Source: Gemmatimonadales bacterium
Lineage (GTDB): Bacteria; Gemmatimonadota; Gemmatimonadetes; Gemmatimonadales; GWC2-71-9
Reading direction: 5' to 3'
Length of the DNA stretch: 64,000 nt
Assembly (NCBI GenBank): GCA_037189525.1
Contig: JBBCJC010000011.1
Coordinates: 1 to 64,000, forward strand
Shown: positions 22,538-35,299 of the stretch, in pieces
Layout of the letters: every line of letters begins with the position of its first letter
Position numbering within the stretch: position 1 is the stretch's first letter
Program-made: the position numbers and the translations under genes
The notes under the pieces: model-generated
Database searches by the model: none
What the model was told of the DNA's origin: nothing
Seen by the model: only the letters and a program-made list of their open reading frames with translations

Positions 22538-23983
22538 CTAGGGAGATCGGGGAATGGCCGCGCCGTGGCAGGCGGCGCACATCTCCGGGTTGCGGCGGCG
22601 GAGGCGTTCGGCGTCGAAACCGGGGCCGTGCGGGTTGAACCGGAAGCCGCGCCCGATGGCCGCGTGGCAGGCGGTGCAGTCGCGCTCGGTGTGACAGGAA
22701 ACGCACGATTCGAGCGATTGCCGGGCCGCCTGGCCATGGCCCAGGATGAACGAGGCCCTGCCGTCGTGGAAACGGGCGCTGCCGAGCGAGCGGCTGGCGC
22801 CGAGTCCGGCCTGGGCGTGGCAACTGGCGCAGAACTGCTGGGTGTTGTGGCAGTCGCTGCAACTGGTCTGCCGGGCAAACGCGGCGCTCGGGTGGCTGGT
22901 CAGGAACCCGGCCGGATGGTAGTTGCCTCCGGACGGCTGCCCCGGATCGGGCCGGTGGCAGGCAAGGCAATCCTCGCGGACGTGACAACTGCTGCAACTC
23001 CGCGGCGCGGCCGTGGCGGTGCCCGCATGGTTCTCCCGGAACTCCACGGTGTGCGAGGCTGGCGGACGCCGGTCGAGCAGGGCGCCGGCGGCCCGGCCCG
23101 GCGCCGGCTGGTGCAATGCCGTTACCGCGCGGGGAGCCGGAGCGACGTGGCAGGCGGCGCAGCTGGGCTGGGCGTGGCACGTGGCGCAGCTGGCGGGATT
23201 GCGTTGGGCCTGGCGACCGTGCGCCGTCGCGAAGTTCCGGGCCGCGTGCGACGGCGGAGCGACGAATTCCGCGCGATGAACCAGCGACCGCTCGTCCGGC
23301 CTGAGCGCCTGGATCGCGGCGACCTCGGGGGCGTTGACGTGGCAGTTGAGGCAGAAATTCTGCGCATGGCAGGTCGCGCAGCTGGCGGAAACGGTCGGCT
23401 GCCCGCCCGGGGTTCTCACCGAAGCGAGCTTGGCATGACCGCTGAGCCCGAACTCGGGGGCCTGGTGAGAGGGCGGAGCGGGAAACCCGCGGATCTGGCC
23501 CGCCGGGAGCGCGACGGCCTCCGCCAGAGGAAGGTGACAAGTGGCGCACTGCTGATTGACCACGGTGAGATGCTCGGCGCCGGGCTGATGGCAGTCGATG
23601 CATTGAGTCACCACGTTGCGGTGGACCTCGCTCCGCAGGCCGTCAGTGGTGTGGCACTGGGCGCAGCCGACCGAGTCGGCGGTGGCGCTCGAGTGCCGGT
23701 CGTGCGCAAAGCGCAGGTTGGACGGAGGCGGTGCCAGAGGGGCCGTCCAGCTGACCACCGGCGCGACTTCGCCGTCATGGCATGCTGCGCACTTATCGCG
23801 GTCGGGCCAGACGGCAGCGCCGAGCTCCGCGGCGCCGGCATGACAGGTCGTGCAGGCCAGCGGAAACAGCTTGCCGTGGACCGCGTGGTCGAAGCCCCGC
23901 CGGGACGAGGCGGCCCGGACGGCTGCCGCGGCAAGGATCAGCGCCAGGCCGGCGGCCACCAGTCGAAAGGTGCGCGCTCTCAT
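22538..23983 (-). CDS. Periplasmic 16-heme cytochrome c
   Basis: Signal peptide MRARTFRLVAAGLALILAAAAVRA; 16 CXXCH counted, many as tight pairs. Confidence 0.92.
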   Translation of the reverse strand: MRARTFRLVAAGLALILAAAAVRAASSRRGFDHAVHGKLFPLACTTCHAGAAELGAAVWPDRDKCAACHDGEVAPVVSWTAPLAPPPSNLRFAHDRHSSATADSVGCAQCHTTDGLRSEVHRNVVTQCIDCHQPGAEHLTVVNQQCATCHLPLAEAVALPAGQIRGFPAPPSHQAPEFGLSGHAKLASVRTPGGQPTVSASCATCHAQNFCLNCHVNAPEVAAIQALRPDERSLVHRAEFVAPPSHAARNFATAHGRQAQRNPASCATCHAQPSCAACHVAPAPRAVTALHQPAPGRAAGALLDRRPPASHTVEFRENHAGTATAAPRSCSSCHVREDCLACHRPDPGQPSGGNYHPAGFLTSHPSAAFARQTSCSDCHNTQQFCASCHAQAGLGASRSLGSARFHDGRASFILGHGQAARQSLESCVSCHTERDCTACHAAIGRGFRFNPHGPGFDAERLRRRNPEMCAACHGAAIPRSP

Positions 23984-24008
23984 CGGCGCCGCTCGCTCGG
24001 CAGGAGGA

Positions 24009-25502
24009 TCATCGGCGCTCTCCGCGAGGTACTGCGTGAGGCAGGGGGAGCCGATCGGCATTGGAGCCGAAAAGAACCGTCACCCGGGCCGACACGCGGA
24101 GCTGATCCCAGTCGAGCGCGCGCGCGTCGAGCCGTTGCCGCTGTTCGTTGTATCGGGCGGTGGTGATCCCCACCCGCCATCGGTCATTGGGCCGGTACTC
24201 CGCATCCGCGCCGAATCCCAGAAGCTCGGCGTCGTCATAGCGTAGTTCCAGCGGGCGCTTGCTGCGGGTGCCGTGCGCACTGAGCCAGAGCCGGTCGGTC
24301 GCGACCCAGGTGACCCGGCCGTCGAACCCCCGCGACGCTGCCCCCGGCCCGAACTCGGCCCGATAGCCTGCATCGACCGTCCAGCGGTCGGCGGGGCTCC
24401 AGGTCACGCCCGACTCGAATCGCCAGCCGCGATCCTCTACCGTAATACCAGGGGTGAAGGTTTCCGTGTCGTCGAAGCGGAATCGCTCGCCGCGGGCCCG
24501 AAGCGTCACCCGAGCCGTGGGACGGACCGTGCCGGACAGGTGCCAGGCGTGATGAGCCACGGGGCTGAAGGCGCCCCAGATGGTCCACAGGTCGAAGAAC
24601 GGCCGGTAGCGGCGGACTCCGCCGCTCACGCTGAAGCGCGGGTCGATCCAGCTGACCGTCGCGTCGGCGCTGCCTACCTGGCCAAAGGCGAGATCGTATT
24701 CGCCACCCGTCGTGAGGCTGACGCGGCGGTGGGGCCGAATGGCGATGGCGGCGGCGGCCCGCTCGGACACGAAGTAGTCGACGGCGGGATCCAACTCCCT
24801 CCGGTACTCGACTCGCGCATTGGCCACGGCGTGGGTCCAGCCCAGCTCGAGGCCCGCAACTACCTGTCGGTCGCGGGGTTGAAAGTCGTCGAGCGGATTG
24901 AGGGCCGGATCGGTTACCGGAAGCATGGCGCCCCGCGCCAGGCCCCACCCCGCGTATCCTCCCGCTTCGAGGCCGGAACCCCGATGCCGGACGAGCACGC
25001 GGCCTCCGTCGAGCCCATAGGCTCCCAGTCGCCCTAACAGCAATTGACGTCCCGCCCGGGCGATCAGCTGGTTCCGTTGGTATTCGAGATATCCCTCGAC
25101 CAGCTGAAGGGCGGGTTCGGTGCCGGGCCAGCTGGCCTCGCCCAGGTCGGTGGCCGAGCGGACGTTGGCGCGGGCGGTCAGTCCGGCCACACCGAAGCCC
25201 CAGACGGTCAGGTCGGCCTGGGTCACCCAGGGCATTCCGCGCAACTCGGCGCCAGGTGCGAAGTAGGAGCAGGTCTGCTCGCCGCACAGCGCGGCGTAGC
25301 CATCCGGCGTGAGGAATCCGCCCCCCGTCTGCGGAATGGCTTGGGCGCGCGGGAGGGTGCCGGCCAGAACCCCGCGCCAGGCCACGCTCTGCAGCCGGCT
25401 GTCGAGCCTGACGCGATACCCCTGCGCGGCGGCGGTCGTGGCCGTAGCAGTCGAGAGGCCCAGCGCAGCAAGCACAATCAGGCCGAGACGTGGGACGATC
25501 AT
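24009..25502 (-). CDS. Predicted outer-membrane beta-barrel (porin) of a porin-cytochrome cluster
   Basis: Signal peptide; alternating aromatic/Gly beta-strand pattern (LVEGYLEY, ARAGRQ, GLDGG, LRVSARVTVLF); ATGA-coupled to a cytochrome gene. Confidence 0.8.
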   Translation of the reverse strand: MIVPRLGLIVLAALGLSTATATTAAAQGYRVRLDSRLQSVAWRGVLAGTLPRAQAIPQTGGGFLTPDGYAALCGEQTCSYFAPGAELRGMPWVTQADLTVWGFGVAGLTARANVRSATDLGEASWPGTEPALQLVEGYLEYQRNQLIARAGRQLLLGRLGAYGLDGGRVLVRHRGSGLEAGGYAGWGLARGAMLPVTDPALNPLDDFQPRDRQVVAGLELGWTHAVANARVEYRRELDPAVDYFVSERAAAAIAIRPHRRVSLTTGGEYDLAFGQVGSADATVSWIDPRFSVSGGVRRYRPFFDLWTIWGAFSPVAHHAWHLSGTVRPTARVTLRARGERFRFDDTETFTPGITVEDRGWRFESGVTWSPADRWTVDAGYRAEFGPGAASRGFDGRVTWVATDRLWLSAHGTRSKRPLELRYDDAELLGFGADAEYRPNDRWRVGITTARYNEQRQRLDARALDWDQLRVSARVTVLFGSNADRLPLPHAVPRGERR

Positions 25503-27553
25503 GAGCGCCCCGGTCCGGTCAGCCGGCGCCGCAGTTCGGCCGGCGACTCGAGGAAATGGCAGGTGGCGCACTCGCGGCTCGGATAATGATCCTTCGCTTG
25601 CTCGGCATGGCAGGTCGCGCAGAACAACCGGTCGGGAGTAAACCGGGCCACGGTCGACGCGGTGTGACAGGCATCGCAGCGCTGGTGCGACGCCGCGAGG
25701 TCGTCCGCGTGCGCGGTGCGGATCTCGGGGCCGGTGTGACAGGCAGCACAGCTTCGGCCCGCGGCGTGGTGATCGCTATGACAATCGGCGCAGCGGCGGA
25801 CGCCTTCCGCCGGCGCCAGCGACACCGGCTGGGTATGGCAGGTGACGCAACGGAGTTCGGTGTGTGTCTGGTGCGCAAAACCGACGCTCCTGACCCGTGG
25901 CTCCCGGTCCTTGACCCCGATCGGTACCGCCAGCGCGCGGATCGCCGCCAGGTCGCCGGGGCGGTGGCACGCGGCGCAGTTGCTCGATCGTGGCGCCTGA
26001 TGGTGACAGATCTGACATCCTCGCGGCGGGACGAAGGTCAGTGTTGCAGAACTCGCTCCGGTGGTATGACAGGTGATGCAGGCAAGGCGGGTATGTCGGG
26101 CATGGGGAAAGGAGTCGACGGACGCAATCGATGGTTCGGCTGCTGCCGTTGGCGGGTCCGGCGCCGGGAGTTCCGGCGGCGGGGTGTCTCCTTTCCCGGG
26201 AAGCTCGATCTCTGCGGCTGGAGCAGGCGCCGCGGCCGGCCGCGGCGGCCAGGCTACGGGACCGGGCGGTCGTGCTCCGTCGAAGTGCCCGACACTCGGT
26301 GGAACCGGTTGCTCGGGATCACGTGCCGAAGTCCGCAGCGCCCGCGTGGTGTCGAACGGCAGGGGCGGACGGAGACGGAGGGTGCCGAAGCGCGCGGTCA
26401 CGCTGGTATGGCATGCCACGCAATCGCTGGCGTCGACCCGCGCGGCGTGCTGATTGTGGCAGACCAGGCACTGCTGGCCAACCTGACCGTGAGCCCGCCC
26501 GGTATGGAACGGTACGGTCTGCCAATCCGCATGGCACTGACTGCAGGTCTTGCCTGCCTCGGCCGGGGTGGTCTGGGTGTGCGGGTTGTGGCAGGTCCCG
26601 CAGGTGCCGTTGTGCGGATCGCGCGCGGGGTCGAAGTCTCCGGCGACCTGTCGCATCGCGTGACAGGAGAAACACTGCCGGCTGCCGGGCTGCATCGCGT
26701 CGGCCGCGTCCTCGCGCGTGGCCAGCCGCGGCACCTCGGCGGTGAACTGGTGGCACTGGTTGCAGTGCAGCGTGGACTGGGTGGCCATCCGGCCCAGCTT
26801 GATGTCGAGATTGGCGTGGCAGCCCGCGCTGCCGCAGGTCTCGTTGGCTGGGATGAACGCGTGCACTTCCTTCCCATGGCAGGTCACGCAGAGCACCTTT
26901 TCGAGCGCGCTCGAATCCGATTCCAGATGGACCCGATGCCCCGCGGTCTGCGCGATCCGGGTCCAGGCTTCGGACTGATCCTTGGCATGGCACGATTCGC
27001 AGCGCGCGTTAGGCACCGGCGCGTGGGGCGGGATTTCCACCGGCTTGTTGGCCACCCAGAGCACCAGCTGGCGGGTGCTGGCGTAGAGCGATTGCTGATG
27101 GCAGTCGTGACACTGCAGAGCGCTGTGCTTGCCCGCGTCGGATCCGAACTTGTTCCAGGGCCCTTCCATGATGTGGCAGCCGACGCAAAAGGCGTTGTCG
27201 TGCTGCATGAAGTTCCAACTGACCTGGCCGCCGCGGAACAGGAGCGCCAGCACCAATACGGCGCCCGTGCTCATGGCGATTTTGACCCCGCGGTCCCGGG
27301 TCGTGAGCCAGTGGCCGATGGCGCTGCGTCGTCGCCAGAGGAACAGCGCGAGCCAGATGCCGACCGTGAGGCCCACCACGATCCCAACCACCCACGCCCA
27401 GGTCGGCGCGTTGAAAATGGCGCGGAGCACGGTCATGACGCCGCCGGGGATCGGCGGAGGCTCCGCAGGAACGCCCTCGCGGAATCGGTGGAAACTGGCC
27501 GAGTCGGGAATCTGCGGAGCGAGCGCGGCCAGGCCCGGAAGGAAGAGTGCCAT
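25499..27553 (-). CDS. Membrane-anchored multiheme cytochrome c (19 CXXCH + 1 CX4CH) with NapC/NrfH-like N-terminal domain
   Basis: Two TM helices, then FCVGCHIM...H...CHDCH; a Pro/Ala-rich linker separates 11-heme and 9-heme blocks. An upstream start at 27673 is possible. Confidence 0.9.
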   Translation of the reverse strand: MALFLPGLAALAPQIPDSASFHRFREGVPAEPPPIPGGVMTVLRAIFNAPTWAWVVGIVVGLTVGIWLALFLWRRRSAIGHWLTTRDRGVKIAMSTGAVLVLALLFRGGQVSWNFMQHDNAFCVGCHIMEGPWNKFGSDAGKHSALQCHDCHQQSLYASTRQLVLWVANKPVEIPPHAPVPNARCESCHAKDQSEAWTRIAQTAGHRVHLESDSSALEKVLCVTCHGKEVHAFIPANETCGSAGCHANLDIKLGRMATQSTLHCNQCHQFTAEVPRLATREDAADAMQPGSRQCFSCHAMRQVAGDFDPARDPHNGTCGTCHNPHTQTTPAEAGKTCSQCHADWQTVPFHTGRAHGQVGQQCLVCHNQHAARVDASDCVACHTSVTARFGTLRLRPPLPFDTTRALRTSARDPEQPVPPSVGHFDGARPPGPVAWPPRPAAAPAPAAEIELPGKGDTPPPELPAPDPPTAAAEPSIASVDSFPHARHTRLACITCHTTGASSATLTFVPPRGCQICHHQAPRSSNCAACHRPGDLAAIRALAVPIGVKDREPRVRSVGFAHQTHTELRCVTCHTQPVSLAPAEGVRRCADCHSDHHAAGRSCAACHTGPEIRTAHADDLAASHQRCDACHTASTVARFTPDRLFCATCHAEQAKDHYPSRECATCHFLESPAELRRRLTGPGRS

Positions 27554-27676
27554 GGTCAGGCGCTTTCCGCGCGGATCGTGATTCGGATTACGGGGCCGTG
27601 GGTCGGGCGCCTGTCCGGACGGAACGACCGACGCCCCGCGGCCGGAAGGGACCGCGGGGTCGTGGATTGGCACCGG

Positions 27677-29242
27677 TTACCGGGAGGCGCCGGCGACCGT
27701 GATCTCATGCCCAGGTATCGGCGTACTCGAGCGCCGGAGGCCGTGCGCGTATTTCCCGCCCGTCGGACCGTCCAGAATGGCCTGGATCGCGGCCGACGGG
27801 GCCGGAAGCGCGTAGGTCGCCTGCACCTCGTTGATCGAAGCAATCAGCAGCGCTTCGCAGAGGAACGGGTTGTGGATGCCCTTCGAATTGTCGGCCGTCG
27901 ACTGGCCGTACTCGCCGCACATCCGGGCGTTGAACTCGGCGCCTTCGGCCGGGGTGATCTGATTGTCCGTCGTGCTCCACGCCTGCGGGTAGAGCTGCCG
28001 CACTCTGGGCAGCAAGCCGGCGTCGGTCGGGGCCGCCTGCATCGAACCGTTGCCGTCGGTGTCGGTCCAGAGCTGGTTGGTGAGCAGCCGCATCCGGGAC
28101 CGGACGGTGGTGAATGCCGCAGCCGCCACCGATGCGTTGGCGTGGCAACCCGAGGCGGTGCAGGTGGCCCAGGAACGCGCGGTCGGGGTGTAGCCGCAGT
28201 TGTCGCTGGCGGTCGGGCGACCCTGCTCGTCGAGGCAGGGGATCGGCCGCATCAGATGGCCGGTGGCCTGGAAGGCCTGGCCGCCCTGCTGGTCGGGCGC
28301 GGTGACGCGGTTCAGGTGGCATCCGGCGCAGAGCGTCGGGTTCGCCTCGGTGGCGTGCGAACTGAAAATCCGATCCTCGGCATAGATGAAGCCAGCCGGC
28401 CGATAGCCCGCGGTGCCGAGCAGGAGCGAACCCTGCGGAGCATGGGGCGACGAACTGGTGTTGGTCGGCGCGTCGTAGCGGAGGTGGCATTTCATGCAGA
28501 GGTTCTGTTCCACGTCCGCCGTGTTGATCGGGAAGCGAAGTTGGGACGGATTCTCCGAGCCGTGCGGATCGTGGCAGGTCGCGCAGACGGCGACCGGCTG
28601 ATACGCCGTGGCTTCGCCCTTCTCCATGTAGTTGTTGGTGACGCCCCAGCGGGCCAGCGCCTGCCGGCTCTCGTGACATCCGGCGCAGGACGCGTTGGCG
28701 GTGCGGGACGGGTTCACCACCGCGTGCTGGGACTGGCGCCACTCCTCGACGTAGGGATGGTGGGTGTCGCTGTGACACTCTGCGCAGGTACCGTTGCCCG
28801 TCATTCCGATGCGGGCGAGCGGGCGCACGACCTGTCCCTGGCCGATACCGCGGACGTGGTCGAGTCCGGGTCCGTGGCAGCTTTCACACTGGACATCGTG
28901 GTAAACGGCATCGCGGGTGGTGTTGAAGCCGGCCGCTTCGCTCACCATGTTGCCGCGCTCGGTGACCGCATGGCAACTGGCGCATTGATTCGGCGCGGTC
29001 GACGGCAGGTCCGCAAAGGTGGTGGCATGCGCCGTCGTCCGCCAGCGGCTCTGCACGTCGGCGTGGCAATTACCGCAGGTGGTCTGTTTGTTTTCCGCAG
29101 AGTAGTAGCCCAGGAAGCCGAGTGCGGCTGCGGGCGGTTCATTGAAGGGATCGCGATCGCGATAGACGACTTTGTCCGCTGCGCAGCCTGCGAGCAGGGC
29201 AGCGAGCGGAAGCGTCCGAAGTGCCAACGCAACGATGCGCAT
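27677..29242 (-). CDS. Multiheme cytochrome c lipoprotein (8 CXXCH + 1 CX4CH)
   Basis: Lipobox LLAGC; VQCESCHGPG, CATCHDPH, CTASGCH, C-terminal GIHNP helix. Confidence 0.92.
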   Translation of the reverse strand: MRIVALALRTLPLAALLAGCAADKVVYRDRDPFNEPPAAALGFLGYYSAENKQTTCGNCHADVQSRWRTTAHATTFADLPSTAPNQCASCHAVTERGNMVSEAAGFNTTRDAVYHDVQCESCHGPGLDHVRGIGQGQVVRPLARIGMTGNGTCAECHSDTHHPYVEEWRQSQHAVVNPSRTANASCAGCHESRQALARWGVTNNYMEKGEATAYQPVAVCATCHDPHGSENPSQLRFPINTADVEQNLCMKCHLRYDAPTNTSSSPHAPQGSLLLGTAGYRPAGFIYAEDRIFSSHATEANPTLCAGCHLNRVTAPDQQGGQAFQATGHLMRPIPCLDEQGRPTASDNCGYTPTARSWATCTASGCHANASVAAAAFTTVRSRMRLLTNQLWTDTDGNGSMQAAPTDAGLLPRVRQLYPQAWSTTDNQITPAEGAEFNARMCGEYGQSTADNSKGIHNPFLCEALLIASINEVQATYALPAPSAAIQAILDGPTGGKYAHGLRRSSTPIPGHEITVAGASR

Positions 29243-29573
29243 GGTTCGGGTTCCCGAGTGAGTACGGTGAAGCGGTTCGGACGATCGTCGCGTTCTGCTT
29301 ACCGTAGTTCTACTCTAGGAGCATCGAGCCCGCTACGCAATGGGGAAACGTTTCTATTTAATAGCAGTTGAGTCGCCTTTGTGACCATGCTGCGCGCTGC
29401 AGGAATTACGAGAGAAAAATTCAGAAATCCACTTCGTCGGATGCAGCGTATTCGTGACGCGGCAAGGCTGATCGACAGGTGCCGATCGTCGAGCGCCGCG
29501 CTAATTTTCTTTGGGTAACGGGTCGGTTATTGCGACCTCGTTGATCGGATTGCTTCAACGGAGTGTGAGCGCG

Positions 29574-30368
29574 ATGACATCGGTTCCTCCCGCATCGTGT
29601 CCTGCGTGCGGCCAACCCGTCGGCGGGCGGTTCTGCGGTTCCTGCGGCGCGGCCGTCACGTGCGGAGCTTGCGGCGCGGCGCTCGGTTCGGGCGTCCGAT
29701 TCTGTGGCAGTTGCGGAGCGGCGGCGGGCGCGATGGCTCCGGCGCGCGCGCGGGGGAGTTGGCGGACGGGTCCGGCGGTCTTCCCGCTCGCCCTTGCCGG
29801 CATCATGGTCGTCGTGGCTCTGGTCGTGTACCTGGTTCGCCGGGACCCGGCGTCGCCCGCCCTCGCTGGTGGAGTCATGGACTTTGCTCCCGGCAGTACC
29901 GAGCCGGCGCCCGCGCTGGACGGACTGTCCGGGCGTGACCGATTCGATACGCTGTACAATCGCGTCATGCGCGCGTCGGAGCGGGGCGACGGCGCCACGG
30001 TGAACCGCTTTGCCCCAGAGGCCCTGCAGGCCTATCGGGAGCTCGAGCAGCCCGACATCGATGCCCGGTACCATGCCGCGATGCTGCGGCTCCACACCGG
30101 TGACCCGGCCGGCGCATTGGCCCTGGCCGACACGATCGGCAGCTTGGAGTCCAGCCACCTCTTCGGTTTCGTGATCCGTGGCACCGTCGCCCGGTTCCGG
30201 GGTGACAGTACTCGGCTCTCGACCGAACAGGCCAGAGTGCTCCAGCATTATGACGCCGAGATGGCGGTGGGGCGGTACGAATACGCCCATCACAAGTTCA
30301 TTCTCGACCAGTTCATCGGGGAGGCGCGGCAGCGGGCGGCGGCGCCGGCCGAACAGCCGGGACGATAG
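29574..30368 (+). CDS. Double zinc-ribbon membrane protein with helical (TPR-like) C-terminal domain
   Basis: CPAC/CGSC/CGAC/CGSC, one TM, helical repeats. Confidence 0.75.
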   Translation: MTSVPPASCPACGQPVGGRFCGSCGAAVTCGACGAALGSGVRFCGSCGAAAGAMAPARARGSWRTGPAVFPLALAGIMVVVALVVYLVRRDPASPALAGGVMDFAPGSTEPAPALDGLSGRDRFDTLYNRVMRASERGDGATVNRFAPEALQAYRELEQPDIDARYHAAMLRLHTGDPAGALALADTIGSLESSHLFGFVIRGTVARFRGDSTRLSTEQARVLQHYDAEMAVGRYEYAHHKFILDQFIGEARQRAAAPAEQPGR

Positions 30369-30395: not shown

Positions 30396-30821
30396 ATGAA
30401 GGCCGGAACCAAATTCATGCTGGGCGCGGCGATCATCGCCGGTGCGACGGCGCTTCTCATCTATACGGGGATCAGTCAGACCGGGGTCTATTTCCTGAGC
30501 CCGTCCGAGCTGCTCGCCAAGGTGGAGGCGGATGCCTCCTTCCACGAGGTGGGACTCAAGGTCGGGGCGAAGGTCGTACCCGGCTCGATCCGGCGCGACG
30601 ATGCCAGCCGGCGGATCGAGTTCAAGGTGGCCGACGCGGGCGGGACCTTTCCCGTCGTCTATGACGGCCTGGTCCCCGACACCTTCACCGACGAGAATGA
30701 CATCGAAGTCATCATGTCGGGCAAGCTCGACCGCAATGGGGTCTTCCAGGCCACCGAAGTGCTCGCGAAGTGCGGGTCCCGATACGAATCGGAGTACTCG
30801 AAACTGGCGCAGGCAAGCTGA
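30396..30821 (+). CDS. ccmE: Cytochrome c maturation heme chaperone CcmE, CxxxY variant
   Basis: N-terminal TM, YFLSPSE, YDGLVPDTF, VLAKCGSRY; GGAGG RBS. Confidence 0.92.
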   Translation: MKAGTKFMLGAAIIAGATALLIYTGISQTGVYFLSPSELLAKVEADASFHEVGLKVGAKVVPGSIRRDDASRRIEFKVADAGGTFPVVYDGLVPDTFTDENDIEVIMSGKLDRNGVFQATEVLAKCGSRYESEYSKLAQAS

Positions 30822-30849
30822 CTTCCGTGCCCCGGAGTAGGCGAAGCTC

Positions 30850-32889
30850 ATGAATCTGCTTGGTCAATTCGCCCTCTGGGCCGCGCTGCTGATTTCGATC
30901 TGGGCCGTCGTGCTCGCATTTTCGGGGCAGACGGTCGAACGCGCCGAGGTGGCCCGCGCGGTTCGCCGGGCTCCGCACGCGGCCTCGCTGGCGGTCTGGA
31001 TCGCCTCGATCGCGCTGTGGAAGGCGCTCTTTGCGCACGACTTCAGCGTCGAATACGTCTACGCGTACACCTCGCGGAACCTCCCCGACTACTACCTCTT
31101 CTCGGCTTTCTGGGCCGGTCAGAAGGGCTCGCTGCTCTTCTGGGCGCTGGTGCTCGGGTCGTTTGCGTCGCTGGCCCAGATCGTCACGCCGCCGCGGTAT
31201 CGTGATCTCCTGCCCACCGTCGCCGGGGTGACCAGCGGGGTTCTCGCCTTTTTCCTTCTGGTGATGCTGGTCGGCGGGGCTAATCCGTTCGGCCAGCTGC
31301 CCTTCGTGCCGCCGGACGGACGCGGCCTCAATCCGCAGTTGCAAAACCCGGGGATGGTGATCCACCCGCCGATGCTCTATCTCGGGTATATCGGCCTCAC
31401 CATTCCGTTTGCGTTTGCCATCGCGGCGCTGTGGCATCGGCGGCTCGACAGCGGCTGGATCCACGCGATTCGCAAATGGTCGCTCGTGTCCTGGCTCTTC
31501 CTCTCGGTCGGCATCACCATCGGTATGTGGTGGGCGTATGTCGAACTCGGGTGGGGCGGCTACTGGGCCTGGGATCCGGTCGAGAATGCGAGCCTGCTGC
31601 CGTGGCTCACGCTGACGGCCTTCCTTCATTCCGTCATGATCCAGGAAAAGCGCGGGATGCTCAAGCGATGGAACGTGGGCCTGGTGATCGGCTCCTTCCT
31701 GCTCAGCATCTTCGGCACCTTCCTGACCCGGTCGGGCGTGATTGCGAGTGTCCACAGCTTCGCGCAGTCGAACGTCGGCTATTTCTTCCTGGCGTTTCTG
31801 GTCGTGGTCGGCGTCCTGTGCTACACCTTGCTGTACACCCGCTGGCCGGCGCTCGAGCCCGAGGCGCAACTCGAATCGCTCGCGAGCCGGGAAGCGGCCT
31901 TTCTGTTCAATAACCTGATCCTGATCGGGATTGCCTTCTCGGTTCTGTGGGGCACCATCTTTCCCGTCCTGTCCGAAGCCGTGCGGGACGTCAAGATTTC
32001 GGTCGGGCCGCCGTTCTTCAATCGCGTCAACGTTCCGCTCGGTCTGATGCTGCTGTTGCTGACGGGGATCGGTCCCTTGATTGCCTGGCGGAAGACGTCG
32101 GTGCCCAATCTGAAGCGGCAGTTCGCGGCGTCGTTAGGCGGCGCGCTGGTGACCGCGGTCGTCCTGCTGGTCGCCGGGATGCGCGACTTCTATGCCCTGA
32201 TTGCGCTGGTCATTGCCGCTTTCGTCCTCGGCACCGTGGTCCAGGAGTTCGTGCGCGGTATCCGGGCCCGCCGGCGCCTCTATGGTGAATCGCTGATCGT
32301 CGCCACCGGTCGCCTGGTAGGCAGGAACCGTCGCCGCTACGGGGGCTACCTGGTGCACGTTGCCATCGTGGTGTACTTCGTGGCGTTCACGGGCGGGGCC
32401 TTCAAAGTCACCCGGGAAGCCACGCTGCGGGTCGGCGAGTCGATGGACATCCGGAGTCCCTTCGGCGCGACCTATCGACTGACCCATCTGGGCGTTTCCC
32501 AGTATGACGCGCTCAACCGCCAGGTCTCGGCCGCTACGCTGGAAGTGCGCCGCGATGGCCAGAGGATCGGGACGGTGGTGTCGGAGAAGCGCCAGCACGT
32601 CGACAGCTTCGGCAATCCGACGTTCCAGCCCTCGACCGAAGTCGGGATCCTGCCCAGCATACGGGAGGACCTCTACGTCGTCTTTGCGGGCACGGTCGAT
32701 TTCACTGAGCGGGCTTCCTTTGCCATCACCCTCAATCCGCTGGTATGGTGGGTCTGGTTCGGTGGCATCCTGCTGGTCGTCGGCGGGCTGATCACGCTTT
32801 GGCCGGGCGGCCCGGGTATGGCACCGCAGGTAACGCGAGTGCGCGCGCCCGAAGCGCTGGAGCCGGCCCCCGAGCCGGTCAACGTATGA
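30850..32889 (+). CDS. ccmF: Heme lyase CcmF
   Basis: WAGQKGSLL, GLNPQLQ, IHPPMLYLGY, WGGYWAWDPVENAS, SVHSF. Confidence 0.96.
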   Translation: MNLLGQFALWAALLISIWAVVLAFSGQTVERAEVARAVRRAPHAASLAVWIASIALWKALFAHDFSVEYVYAYTSRNLPDYYLFSAFWAGQKGSLLFWALVLGSFASLAQIVTPPRYRDLLPTVAGVTSGVLAFFLLVMLVGGANPFGQLPFVPPDGRGLNPQLQNPGMVIHPPMLYLGYIGLTIPFAFAIAALWHRRLDSGWIHAIRKWSLVSWLFLSVGITIGMWWAYVELGWGGYWAWDPVENASLLPWLTLTAFLHSVMIQEKRGMLKRWNVGLVIGSFLLSIFGTFLTRSGVIASVHSFAQSNVGYFFLAFLVVVGVLCYTLLYTRWPALEPEAQLESLASREAAFLFNNLILIGIAFSVLWGTIFPVLSEAVRDVKISVGPPFFNRVNVPLGLMLLLLTGIGPLIAWRKTSVPNLKRQFAASLGGALVTAVVLLVAGMRDFYALIALVIAAFVLGTVVQEFVRGIRARRRLYGESLIVATGRLVGRNRRRYGGYLVHVAIVVYFVAFTGGAFKVTREATLRVGESMDIRSPFGATYRLTHLGVSQYDALNRQVSAATLEVRRDGQRIGTVVSEKRQHVDSFGNPTFQPSTEVGILPSIREDLYVVFAGTVDFTERASFAITLNPLVWWVWFGGILLVVGGLITLWPGGPGMAPQVTRVRAPEALEPAPEPVNV

Positions 32890-33500
32890 CCGGCCCGATC
32901 GATCGCCGTCGCGTTCTCGGTGTGCTGGCGGCCGGCCTGCTGGCCCGGCGCCTCGACGCGCAGCAGGCCGGGCAGCCCGGAGCGGCCGATCCGCTGCCAC
33001 GCCCCGGCGTGGTCGGTGCGCCGCGCCGAGTGGTCGATTCGGTTCAGAATGACCCGCAGATCGTCGCCGTCGAGCGGCGGCTCCGTTGCCCCTGTCCCTG
33101 CGGGCTCGACGTCTTTACTTGCCGGACCACCGATTTCACCTGCACCTATTCGCCGGCTCGGCACGACGAAGTGGTTGCCCTGTTCCGGGAAGGCAAGACC
33201 CCGGAGGAAGTGGTGGCCGCGTTCGTCGACCGGTACGGCGAAGAGGCGCTGATGGCGCCCAAGCCCGAGGGCTTCGGGATCGTCGGATACCTGCTGCCAG
33301 GCGCCGCCATCCTGACCGGCGCCAGCCTGCTCGGCTGGTACATCCTGCGCCGATCCCGGCTGCGTCGAGCCGCTGCCGGTGCGGTGGCGGTTTCGGATGT
33401 CTCACCGGCGCCGGTGCCGGACATCGCAGGCGCCGCCGATCGTGAAACGGCCCAGGATGTAGACCGGCTCCAGCGGGCCCTTCGGGATCTCGAGACCTGA
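32886..33500 (+). CDS. ccmH: CcmH-family cytochrome c biogenesis protein, Cys-rich variant
   Basis: RLRCPCPC..C..C, FVDRYGEEALMAP, C-terminal TM; ATGA overlap with ccmF. Confidence 0.85.
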   Translation: MTGPIDRRRVLGVLAAGLLARRLDAQQAGQPGAADPLPRPGVVGAPRRVVDSVQNDPQIVAVERRLRCPCPCGLDVFTCRTTDFTCTYSPARHDEVVALFREGKTPEEVVAAFVDRYGEEALMAPKPEGFGIVGYLLPGAAILTGASLLGWYILRRSRLRRAAAGAVAVSDVSPAPVPDIAGAADRETAQDVDRLQRALRDLET

Positions 33501-33985
33501 TGCTGGAACTCGCTGCCATCATCGTGCTCGGCCTGGTGCTCATCGGTATGGTGATGACACCGTTGCTCCGCAGGACGCCGGACCCGGACGACCTCGACGA
33601 ACCGTTGCCGCTCGAGGAGACCCGCCAGGGCCAGGCCCTGCTTGCCATCAAAGACCTCGATTTCGATCACGCCACCGGGAAGATCTCGGAGGATGATTAC
33701 CTCGCGTTGAAGGGCCGATTCACTTCCGCGGCACTTGCCGCGCTTCGGGACGAGCCGGCCGATCCCGCCGAGCAGCTGGTTGCGGCGCGGCGGGCGGCGC
33801 TCGACGGAGCCGGGCCGGTCGCGGTGTGTCCCGCCTGTGGCCCTCGGCCCGAATCGGACGCCCGTTTCTGTTCCGATTGCGGCCTCTCGCTCGATACCCC
33901 TACGACCTGCCCGAGCTGCGCGGCTCCGCTGCCGTCGGGAGCCCGTTTCTGTGCCGGTTGCGGGACTCGGGCGGCGGCAGCGTAG
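33500..33985 (+). CDS. CcmI N-terminus-like membrane protein with double zinc ribbon
   Basis: TM, IKDLDFDHATGKISEDDY, CPAC/CSDC/CPSC/CAGC. Confidence 0.75.
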   Translation: MLELAAIIVLGLVLIGMVMTPLLRRTPDPDDLDEPLPLEETRQGQALLAIKDLDFDHATGKISEDDYLALKGRFTSAALAALRDEPADPAEQLVAARRAALDGAGPVAVCPACGPRPESDARFCSDCGLSLDTPTTCPSCAAPLPSGARFCAGCGTRAAAA

Positions 33986-34033: not shown

Positions 34034-35299
34034 TCAGCGCATTTCCAGTCTGATCGCCCCGTTCATCACGCTGTTCTCACCCCGAACGACCCAGTTGGCT
34101 CCCGGCAGGTACGCATTGGCCGCCGCCACATCTTCGACCGCATTGCCGACCGGGTCGTCGTTGGTCGAGAAGAATGAGAACGTCGCCTTGAGCATCCGGA
34201 TCCAGATCGGCGCCTTCTCGAAGATCCGCCCGCCGGCGCGCGCGACGTCCTTGCCGCCGGTGTTGTCGCCGTAGACCAGCCGAATCGATTCGAAGAGGGC
34301 GTTGGCGCGGTTCTGATCGATCTTGATCTGGCAGGCGCCATCGTCGTCCTCCACCACGAATACCCTGAGCGCCTGGCCGGGATGCTGGGTCTGGTAGCTG
34401 TTCAACTGCGCCTGGCTCATCAACATGACGTTTCCGGACCATTGGGTACTGTTCTGGTCGAAGGTGTAGGGGCCGCCCGCATGTTCGCCGGCGCACTGAT
34501 AGCTGGTCAGCGCGTTCTCGGAACCGGCCTTACCCAGGACGTGAACCTCGAACTCGGGGGCCCCTTTGAACCAGCCTTCGAAGGTGTCGACGAATTTGGC
34601 GCGCGTCATGAACAGGCCCTGGGATGCGGTCGAGCCGCCACTGCCACCGCCGCCTCCCCCGACGCTGCCACCTCCTCCACCGCCGCCCGGACCCAGCATG
34701 TCGTCACAGGCCATCAGGCACGAGTTGGCCATCGGCCGATCGAAGTCGATCTCCGCGCGGCCGAGCATCAGCACCGGGGTCTCGGGCGGAGTGGTGGGGC
34801 TCAGCAGGTGGCGTCGCCCGGCCAGATCGAAGGCGACCGGCGCATCATTATCGAGTTCGGCCGTGGCAACCAGCAGGTCCTCGCCGCCGTTCCACCGGGC
34901 CCGGTGTTCCGGCACCGGAAAGTAGACCTCGATGGCCGGCCCGTCGGCGATCCGTTCCGTGACGCCGATTTCGGCCGAAGCGGTCGGCGCAGCAAGGTGC
35001 GCATAGGCGCGCCTGTCCCGGCTCAGGAAGCCCTGCAGGCTGATTTTCCCTTCGGGGAGCGGTGAATGGCGAAGTTCCAGCATCACCGTGCGCCGAAACT
35101 CCGGATTGCGCATGGCGACGGCCACTTGCTCGGCAAGCCATTCGTGGCGCTCGCGAAGATGGGCCAGGTAGGGCGGGTCGGCGGGAGGTCTAACTGCTTG
35201 CTCCGCATTCGGCTGGGTCGGATGGACGGTCGGTCGGTCGCTGCAGGCGGCAAGACCCAGGAGCAACGCGGCGGCGAGGCCGGTACGGCGGTACGACAT
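34034..35299 (-). CDS. Lipoprotein, DUF3103-like
   Basis: Lipobox LAAC; AFDLAG, EGWFKGAPEFEVH, VEDDD; Gly-rich linker. Family name is from recall only. Confidence 0.7.
   Translation of the reverse strand: MSYRRTGLAAALLLGLAACSDRPTVHPTQPNAEQAVRPPADPPYLAHLRERHEWLAEQVAVAMRNPEFRRTVMLELRHSPLPEGKISLQGFLSRDRRAYAHLAAPTASAEIGVTERIADGPAIEVYFPVPEHRARWNGGEDLLVATAELDNDAPVAFDLAGRRHLLSPTTPPETPVLMLGRAEIDFDRPMANSCLMACDDMLGPGGGGGGGSVGGGGGGSGGSTASQGLFMTRAKFVDTFEGWFKGAPEFEVHVLGKAGSENALTSYQCAGEHAGGPYTFDQNSTQWSGNVMLMSQAQLNSYQTQHPGQALRVFVVEDDDGACQIKIDQNRANALFESIRLVYGDNTGGKDVARAGGRIFEKAPIWIRMLKATFSFFSTNDDPVGNAVEDVAAANAYLPGANWVVRGENSVMNGAIRLEMR

Follow-up and report, generated by a model that had tools for sequence, protein, structure and literature searches.

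The locus discussed here raises the question of whether a member of the Gemmatimonadota carries, within one operon, a path for electrons from the quinone pool to the cell surface. The stretch analysed (the window) comprises 64,000 nucleotides (nt) of a Gemmatimonadales bacterium (assembly GCA_037189525.1, contig JBBCJC010000011.1, positions 1 to 64,000); it is contig C11 of a 4.65-Mb genome of 66% GC that is 98.1% complete. Positions 22538-29242 are occupied by four minus-strand open reading frames (ORFs), in the order A, B, C, D. Three key questions are: (i) whether the components of an outer-membrane conduit are present; (ii) whether the operon brings its own entry point for electrons; and (iii) in which direction electrons would run. 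We consider a trans-envelope electron conduit of some kind to be probable, while to the specific outward route, from menaquinol through B, D inside C and then A to an external acceptor, we give about equal weight for and against.

The gene order read in the original prediction, that is, a nine-heme lipoprotein, a 20-heme cytochrome, a barrel and a 16-heme cytochrome, is borne out by the ORFs and motif counts. Gene A (27677-29242) encodes an OcwA/OmhA-like lipoprotein of 521 amino acids with eight CxxCH motifs and one CX4CH; B (25499-27553, likely ATG at 27553) encodes an inner-membrane-anchored cytochrome of 684 amino acids with 19 CxxCH and one CX4CH; C (24009-25502) encodes a predicted 22-strand, plugless outer-membrane beta-barrel of 497 amino acids without a heme motif; and D (22538-23983, likely ATG at 23983) encodes an exported cytochrome of 481 amino acids with 16 CxxCH. 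Longer starts at 27673 (B), 25571 (C) and 24061 (D) were rejected, since the later ATGs are where homologues and signal peptides start. The expected total of about 45 hemes corresponds to 45 motifs (9 + 20 + 16), of which 43 are CxxCH and two are the non-canonical CX4CH, whose cysteines and histidine are invariant in 45/45 homologues of A and 51/51 homologues of B. Only six ORFs in the whole 4.65-Mb genome have at least three CxxCH motifs, and three of these are A, B and D, so the density of heme motifs at the locus is far beyond chance. The other three lie elsewhere in the genome and consist of a pair that we take to be NrfH-like and NrfA-like, and a presumably ActA-like pentaheme protein.

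Translational coupling of the last three genes, also part of the original prediction, holds for B and C, which overlap by ATGA, but C and D are 25 nt apart (C stop at 24009, D ATG at 23983); A and B are separated by 123 nt. A minus-strand ORF of 10 codons (23980-24012) bridges C and D, with ATGA overlaps at both ends (C stop, D start). It is likewise open in a close relative (L013), and C and D overlap directly in other relatives (e.g., L014, L015, L017). It is possible that the bridging ORF is a coupling device between C and D, for which it is a candidate.

Whether 24009-25502 encodes a beta-barrel had been named beforehand as a point on which the conduit reading would fall, and at the level of structure prediction it does encode one. 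The AlphaFold model of C, built from a 76-sequence alignment, has a predicted local distance difference test score (pLDDT) of 84.6 and a predicted template-modelling score of 0.77, and consists of a signal-like helix followed by 22 strands (counted from DSSP elements) from residue 28, with no plug; Cys73 and Cys78 are an invariant pair in a loop. All Foldseek matches shown for the model are outer-membrane barrels, none of them close (template-modelling (TM) score at most 0.46), with MtrB at rank 21 (TM score 0.41). The VIA matches listed are outer-membrane barrels as well, the best having Z 19.3 and a root-mean-square deviation (rmsd) equal to 6.2 over 381 aligned residues. TonB receptors align to the model by their barrel part only (BtuB 135-594), and a TonB receptor identity was rejected because the model has no plug. 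The 22 strands, the absence of a plug and this restricted alignment together argue for an open lumen.

The barrel does not fall into a named family. No PDB sequences matching its profile were found, nor was a plasmid match. TIGR03509 (MtrB/PioB) gave no match to C of the window at E ≤ 0.01 and matched 1 of the 76 homologues, at E 0.047; the NCBIfam matches among these homologues were weak and were to EpsL (21), Geobacter GSU2204 (14, best E 6e-5) and MtrB (1). The 30 Atlas clusters nearest to C have no Pfam family in common, and Gemmatimonadota dominate the three listed. From the model and these comparisons, C is predicted to belong to an unnamed outer-membrane barrel family unrelated to MtrB.

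The second component of such a conduit is a cytochrome that occupies the barrel, and the evidence points to D. In a synteny sample of 111 loci (80 of 400 confirmed GTDB stretches, plus 31 loci chosen to include distant barrels), D lies directly downstream of the barrel in 109/109 loci with at least 600 nt of flank. D is thus the barrel's constant partner, which suggests that it is likely to be its insert. D has a signal-like N-terminus; among its hemes, those at the N-terminal side match cytochromes of the ActA and c7 types, and its most conserved part is a C-terminal nine-heme module of paired CxxCH motifs (22538-23266, minus strand), whose repeats may resemble those of Geobacter OmaB. The module is the smallest form seen beside a barrel, since in L106 only this nine-heme form stands directly behind it, and it also occurs free-standing in nine-heme proteins of ~255 amino acids (e.g., P0198, P0210). 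The D-type partner has 16 hemes here and 14, 12 or 9 in some relatives. At about 30 residues per heme, D is comparable to MtrA with ~33 (PMC5566968), and its C-terminal module may be the part that fills the barrel.

A different role for C would be that of a channel through which a cytochrome, D or A, is exported or assembled, the cytochrome then forming a filament or being set free. The best Foldseek matches include the FimD usher pore (TM score 0.42-0.46), and the repeated heme pairs of D could suit a filament. The usher matches, however, are of a generic large-barrel kind (rmsd 10-14), periplasmic accessory domains and ATPase genes were not seen in the locus, and the strict 1:1 pairing of C and D fits Pcc-type insertion; we regard an export channel as highly improbable. 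An apparent natural barrel-cytochrome fusion (P0241) was rejected as a frameshifted read-through in which only barrel positions 7-302 are in frame. Frameshifted or read-through operon genes are also seen in L020, L031, L042, L056, L057, L058, L066 and L110, and all of these copies are probably long-read assembly errors.

The relatives found by the barrel and named are Gemmatimonadota. The barrel profile matches 135 of 301 Gemmatimonadota genomes, or 133 after removal of two weak partial matches, including 87/124 genomes of the organism's own family and 17/22 of its genus; because the genomes are kin, these and the other counts are descriptive and not a test. Phylum-wide synteny, proposed as a check with the original prediction, thus finds the gene set conserved across the Gemmatimonadota (133/301 genomes, with the C-D pair in every locus that could be judged). 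A lies within the flank in 81/90 loci; of the nine loci counted as missing it, five have A truncated at the locus edge. A B-type gene is directly upstream of the barrel in 70/95 loci, and B's NapC-type domain occurs in 99/301 genomes, all 99 of them among the 133 with a barrel.

Several operon variants exist. Six loci have the order A-A-C-D or A-C-D without B, and in five others (L086, L113, L117, L124, L125) the last nine hemes of B are a separate gene with an N-terminal export-type sequence. Nine loci (L034, L038, L043, L047, L063, L070, L085, L087, L092) show a full variant in which B is replaced by three proteins, of 9, 21+1 and 11 hemes, the 21+1-heme protein being a NapC fusion that carries the Lys discussed below and the 9- and 11-heme proteins having C-terminal transmembrane segments; this six-gene operon (A, 9-heme, 21+1-heme NapC fusion, 11-heme, barrel, D) has ~67 hemes. 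The variants indicate a fixed C-D core, with A as the usual outer part and an exchangeable inner-membrane part. Barrel loci labelled Acidobacteriota/Actinomycetota are L078 and L073; L078 is probably mis-binned, as its genome has four barrel copies and 0/100 other genomes of its class have one.

Some side observations concern the surroundings of these operons. Two paralogous barrel loci per genome occur (L113 and L114 in G324; L124 in G184), one with a full B and the other with only the free nine-heme module of B, which in L113 and L124 is apparently a lipoprotein. Further large multiheme genes adjoin the operon in L058 (13461-16975), L060 (12668-17115), L119 (11277-16214) and L121 (12685-16486), and also in L120, L123 and L116; they have 11-23 motifs, some with several transmembrane segments. 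NrfHA-like pairs adjoin it in L015, L078, L079, L084, L086, L096, L099 and L105. In the present genome, an NrfA-like pentaheme gene behind an NrfH-like gene (L093, 3132-4679; G000:C1) carries CxxCH five times and lacks a CxxCK motif. A gene for a small diheme cytochrome lies directly upstream of A in L029, L033, L039, L072, L074-L076 and L089, and several loci of this subgroup carry a 14-heme D.

Gene A is likely to encode a surface terminal reductase, judging from its sequence relatives. The cysteine of its lipobox (LLAG-C20) is invariant in 45/45 homologues, and the residue at +2 is Thr in 43/45 of them and Ala here, not Asp; in E. coli, Asp at this position keeps lipoproteins in the inner membrane. 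Tandem copies of A are found in L095, L106, L108 and L109, and tandem surface cytochromes occur likewise in Shewanella. The best PDB matches of the A profile are 6QVM (E 2.5e-18) and 6I5B (E 9.8e-15), which are OmhA and OcwA (PMC9250108), surface reductases of Gram-positive thermophiles that share with A nine hemes and a similar length. OcwA has nine hemes and a C-terminus of three helices and acts as a surface reductase (PMC6703420); its hemes 1-7 and C-terminal helix motif align with A in order, most single segments weakly, while hemes 8-9 are matched by order only. A differs in being a lipoprotein of a two-membrane bacterium that is encoded with a barrel, and in having CX4CH at heme 9. Two extra cysteines of the A homologues, Cys336 (45/45) and Cys349 (36/45), may form a disulfide, of which OcwA has none.

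The candidate for the inner-membrane component is B, which has 20 motifs in all 51 aligned homologues. Two N-terminal hydrophobic segments, which would be transmembrane and leave the heme domains in the periplasm, are followed on the minus strand by a NapC/NrfH-like tetraheme domain (26846-27304, residues 84-236, with CxxCHxM at heme 1), seven further hemes, a heme-free Pro-rich linker between hemes 11 and 12 (26117-26407) and a C-terminal nine-heme module with cytochrome c7-type PDB matches (25502-26116). PF03264 matches the tetraheme domain in 49/51 homologues at E ≤ 0.01 (best 7.5e-9), its sole PDB match is NrfH (2J7A), and hhalign pairs it with the genome's own NrfH-like protein across all four hemes (P 96, E 1.6e-9). 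NrfH and CymA (NapC/NirT) are alike in their transmembrane helix followed by four c-hemes with CxxCHxM, whereas B has an additional transmembrane segment, 16 more hemes and a deleted Lys stretch. The NapC-type motifs, W166, R/K170 and Q/E162 are conserved; position 162, which we equate with NrfH Asp89, is Gln or Glu in 46/51 homologues. The AlphaFold model of the domain is poor (pLDDT 54.8), and a fold search with it gave helical matches only (Z at most 3.4). The linker, with 62-114 residues between motifs and 11-23% Pro, always follows heme 11 (51/51 homologues), which suggests that B consists of an 11-heme membrane part and a tethered nine-heme arm.

With these parts, two elements of the porin-cytochrome architecture are present, namely an open-lumen outer-membrane barrel, as predicted, and a constant exported multiheme partner. 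Compared with MtrCAB plus CymA (PDB 6R2Q), the predicted set is the same: a NapC-family membrane cytochrome, a barrel, an inserted cytochrome and a surface lipoprotein cytochrome. It differs in the barrel, with the 22 strands and 497 residues of C, the low fold rank of MtrB and the single TIGR03509 match among the homologues, and in the NapC domain, which is fused to 16 extra hemes and encoded within the operon. The checks with MtrA and MtrB models went against Mtr membership for barrel and cytochromes alike: no cytochrome here reaches the decaheme DmsE/MtrC cut-offs, A reaches 59 where the MtrA/DmsE decaheme test requires 192, and TIGR03508 does not match the 16-heme D and matches only 2/45 D modules, weakly. 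The original prediction had described the heme counts as unlike those of decaheme MtrA and MtrC, and the counts found are 9, 20 and 16.

The Geobacter Pcc systems (OmbB-OmaB-OmcB, Ext) agree with C in strand number. Their barrels of 18-22 strands always occur with a periplasmic multiheme cytochrome and usually with an outer-membrane cytochrome in which CX3-15CH motifs can occur, and some clusters include a cytoplasmic-membrane cytochrome (PMC4245776). The barrel partner has 5-14 hemes in Pcc, compared with 16 in D and the lower counts of its relatives, and the Gemmatimonadota are not listed in the available text of that survey (PMC4245776). The weak matches of 14/76 barrel homologues to the Geobacter GSU2204 family are a further likeness; the OcwA-like lipoprotein and the fused NapC-plus-16-heme subunit are differences, OmbB and OmaB being set beside the operon by description only. 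PCC3 and PCC4 are likewise single envelope-spanning clusters with their own inner-membrane component, PCC3 with very high heme counts, but that component is a five-transmembrane heme-b-type protein with SGXXG and WX3HX13H motifs, and the median heme counts are 34 and 21 (PCC3) and 4, 5 and 10 (PCC4) (PMC5566968). B is instead a c-type cytochrome with two transmembrane segments, and none of the four genes encodes a five-transmembrane protein with SGXXG and HX13H motifs.

By sequence, the operon is thus neither Mtr nor PCC3 nor PCC4, although it would work like Mtr and Pcc. The conduit had been called self-contained, and its own inner-membrane cytochrome is indeed in the operon; this is not new in itself, as such subunits are known in PCC3/PCC4 and some mtr clusters (PMC6295460, PMC5566968). 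A description of this operon was not found in full-text literature judged by titles and abstract openings; subscription papers, figures or supplements may show one. Fig. 6 of PMC13264449 shows PCCs that include the candidate phylum ARS69, and 'Gemmatimonad' is absent from the MHCscan paper as far as its text and three supplements go.

The mechanism that we favour would run as follows. B would draw electrons from menaquinol in the inner membrane at its NapC-like heme 1, and its tethered nine-heme module would hand them to the N-terminal hemes of D. D would thread barrel C with its C-terminal nine hemes inside, and, under oxygen shortage, the surface lipoprotein A would reduce acceptors that are insoluble or polymeric, Fe(III) oxides or humic quinones for instance. 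Heme for the wire would be taken up from outside in this genus, and a common palindrome would tie synthesis of the wire to heme supply. The observations that count against this scheme concern, in turn, B, A, physiology and heme supply.

For B, the window's own domain scores 24.0 against the PF03264 cut-off of 24.1, heme-1 Met is replaced by Phe in 19/51 homologues, and the heme chain is interrupted by the long heme-free linker. Compared with the canonical NapC domain of the variant operon, the domain has an eight-residue gap over the Lys stretch, and no invariant Lys is found at residues 155-161 of the B homologues (n = 51). The missing Lys is the equivalent of CymA K91 and NrfH K82, and CymA K91 is essential, as K91Q abolishes function (PMC2762525). 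B is also absent from 25/95 barrel loci, six of which (L095, L106, L108, L109, L119 and L123) have no B-type gene directly upstream. The quinone-to-surface part of the original prediction is therefore supported by the NapC/NrfH-like domain and undercut by the missing quinol-binding Lys stretch and the loci without B; it is plausible but the weakest link.

These properties would also suit an outward conduit in which B is a membrane-anchored periplasmic extension fed by an NrfH-like protein or an ActA-like complex III, in which case the operon would not be self-contained. The missing Lys stretch, the loci without B, the five loci with a free nine-heme end, and the presumably NrfH-like and ActA-like pentaheme genes elsewhere in the genome all favour such a feeder. 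However, the NapC-type motifs with W166, R/K170 and Q/E162 are conserved, and the variant operon has a Lys-bearing NapC protein at the same position. We consider another feeder unlikely, though it has more in its favour than the other alternatives below.

For A, the route to the surface is uncertain, as no secretin in the genome reaches the GspD cut-off. In addition, A has eight conserved non-motif His for its nine hemes, so that a soluble-substrate enzyme is conceivable. The distal-pocket residues His380 and His281 of OcwA would, judging from the alignments, map to H267 (45/45) and H161 (36/45) of A, while for their partners, OcwA H381 and H282, A has Ala, Gly or Ser at position 268 and His at position 162 in 17/45 homologues. 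Because only one His seems to be kept per distal pair, in distinction to OcwA, and there are fewer conserved His than hemes, an open heme site in A is possible, and OcwA reduces nitrite and hydroxylamine in vitro (PMC6703420), so A may act on soluble substrates. A could then be an enzyme of the NrfA/MccA superfamily that reduces a soluble oxyanion or a nitrogen or sulfur compound rather than a mineral, at the surface or in the periplasm, for detoxification or respiration. OcwA-clade proteins with five-coordinate hemes and nitrite reduction in vitro (PMC6703420, PMC9250108) fit this idea. The partner His are not conserved, however, an NrfHA-like pair exists separately, and a soluble substrate needs no trans-membrane wire; we think a catalytic A of this kind quite improbable.

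The physiology of the organism bears on the direction of flow. The genome has menaquinone (Mqn-type) genes and three heme-copper oxidase subunits I, and RuBisCO was not found in it, a combination that fits a heterotroph needing an electron sink at low oxygen. The reductase relatives of A, its near-constant presence and this genomic background argue for the outward direction. On the other side, isolates of another Gemmatimonadota order failed to grow under anaerobic conditions, whether nitrate was supplied or not (PMC11651109); the passages on anaerobic growth in that paper mention no extracellular acceptors. The original prediction had left the direction undecided, and A and D might instead oxidize Fe(II), reduced humics or sulfide minerals, with electrons passing inward to menaquinone or the oxidases and so supplementing the energy supply of a heterotroph. 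NapC-family proteins are known in both directions (PMC6295460), loss of the quinol-oxidase Lys could suit quinone reduction, and three oxidases are at hand. Oxidizing clusters, however, often are without a surface cytochrome (PMC5566968), whereas A is found in 81/90 loci; moreover, the nearest structures of A are reductases and no RuBisCO was found. Inward flow is, in our estimate, distinctly unlikely.

The remaining difficulty is heme. In this 98.1%-complete genome hemA, hemB, hemC and hemE were not found, which makes the supply for 45 sites uncertain. The same holds for the genus: hemA plus hemB are present in 2/22 of its genomes and 0/14 high-quality ones, and 16/17 barrel-bearing genomes have neither gene. 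Ferrochelatase, HmuY and TonB receptors are kept; family relatives possess hemA, and for another Gemmatimonadota order heme synthesis is reported (PMC11651109). The genus probably acquires heme or late porphyrins by scavenging while keeping a 45-heme system, and heme auxotrophy of the whole uncultured genus seems likely from its gene content.

A possible link between heme and the operon is a CCGTA-N4-TACGG palindrome. The copy at 29302-29315 has two mismatches and overlaps what may be a -10 box (29317-29312), with a possible -35 at 29340-29335, although a consensus promoter scan called no promoter at this site; a second two-mismatch copy lies at 29254-29267. The window site is at the same distance as a one-mismatch copy in L013, and its two-mismatch level is attained by about 6/45 shuffled regions. 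Upstream of A, the palindrome occurs with at most one mismatch in 16/45 regions, the same set in which the motif was discovered, with a shuffle mean of 0.3 and 0/44 in a coding control. The genome has 87 sites at this level, mostly chance. Two are perfect, before hemH and before a DinB/lipoprotein pair, and one-mismatch copies stand before hmuY with a TonB receptor and before cbiX, likewise with a TonB receptor. Among ten relatives, with ten downstream ORFs family-scanned, 5/25 perfect sites precede hemA (3), hemH (1) or a TonB receptor (1); further sites of the palindrome are L127:968, L126:2122, L128:1341, L129:2374 and those in L144, L146, L149, L152 and L156. With the hemH protein as query at E ≤ 1e-60, this genome was the only one of 61 to match, so L144 is the single locus showing conservation at hemH; the palindrome is present in 2/4 hmuY relatives. 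It is a candidate operator of a heme/iron regulator in the Gemmatimonadales. Another palindrome, TGAAG-N4-CTTCA, lies upstream of A in 14/45 regions (e.g., L041, L064, L079, L084; shuffle mean 0.07) and is not in the window's intergenic region at up to two mismatches.

An implication of a heme- or iron-responsive operator could be that external Fe(III) or hemoproteins are reduced through the wire for uptake, as part of a heme/iron-starvation regulon. In this genome the palindromes before hmuY and cbiX, each with a TonB receptor, and before hemH agree with this, as do those that precede hemA in three relatives and the early heme pathway that the genus is missing. It would, however, mean spending 45 hemes per conduit, the co-regulation is equally explained by heme supply for the wire, and the window site is at a level reached in shuffled regions; reductive acquisition therefore appears very improbable, and we retain respiration through an outward wire as the favoured function.

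Genes divergent from the operon include ccmE, ccmF and a ccmH-like gene for cytochrome c maturation (30396-33500, plus strand), an arrangement shared by L013, L030, L035, L036, L042 and L058. A double-zinc-ribbon membrane protein (29511-30368, plus strand) is a frequent neighbour of the operon in relatives, at times on its opposite side, and here two double-zinc-ribbon proteins (29511-30368 and 33500-33985) flank ccmE/F/H. A lipoprotein-like ORF of 421 amino acids, which has a linker rich in Gly and is without a match in Pfam, follows at 34034-35299.

Finally, we note what the operon would mean for the Gemmatimonadota, which are often found in soil, sediment and sludge and count as aerobic or facultative heterotrophs. 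The broadest reading, which we put forward tentatively and with more doubt than confidence, is that of an undescribed, Gemmatimonadota-wide extracellular respiration with an OcwA surface reductase of Gram-positive type, a new barrel of 22 strands that holds a 16-heme insert, a Lys-less NapC domain fused to a tethered heme arm that spans the periplasm, an undescribed heme-regulon operator and, in this genus, scavenged heme. If so, the soil and sludge 'aerobic heterotrophs' of the genus would be metal- or humic-respiring heme auxotrophs. Just three MtrABC operons were reported from a survey that applied standard iron-gene models to 495 marine genomes (PMC11316326), in contrast to a barrel family in 133/301 sampled genomes, and if the wire works, a large unannotated group would join iron and humic redox cycling. 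Four marker profiles allow this to be tested in metatranscriptomes and isolates, and the apparent heme auxotrophy suggests a cultivation aid for the uncultured genus, namely hemin together with an extracellular acceptor.

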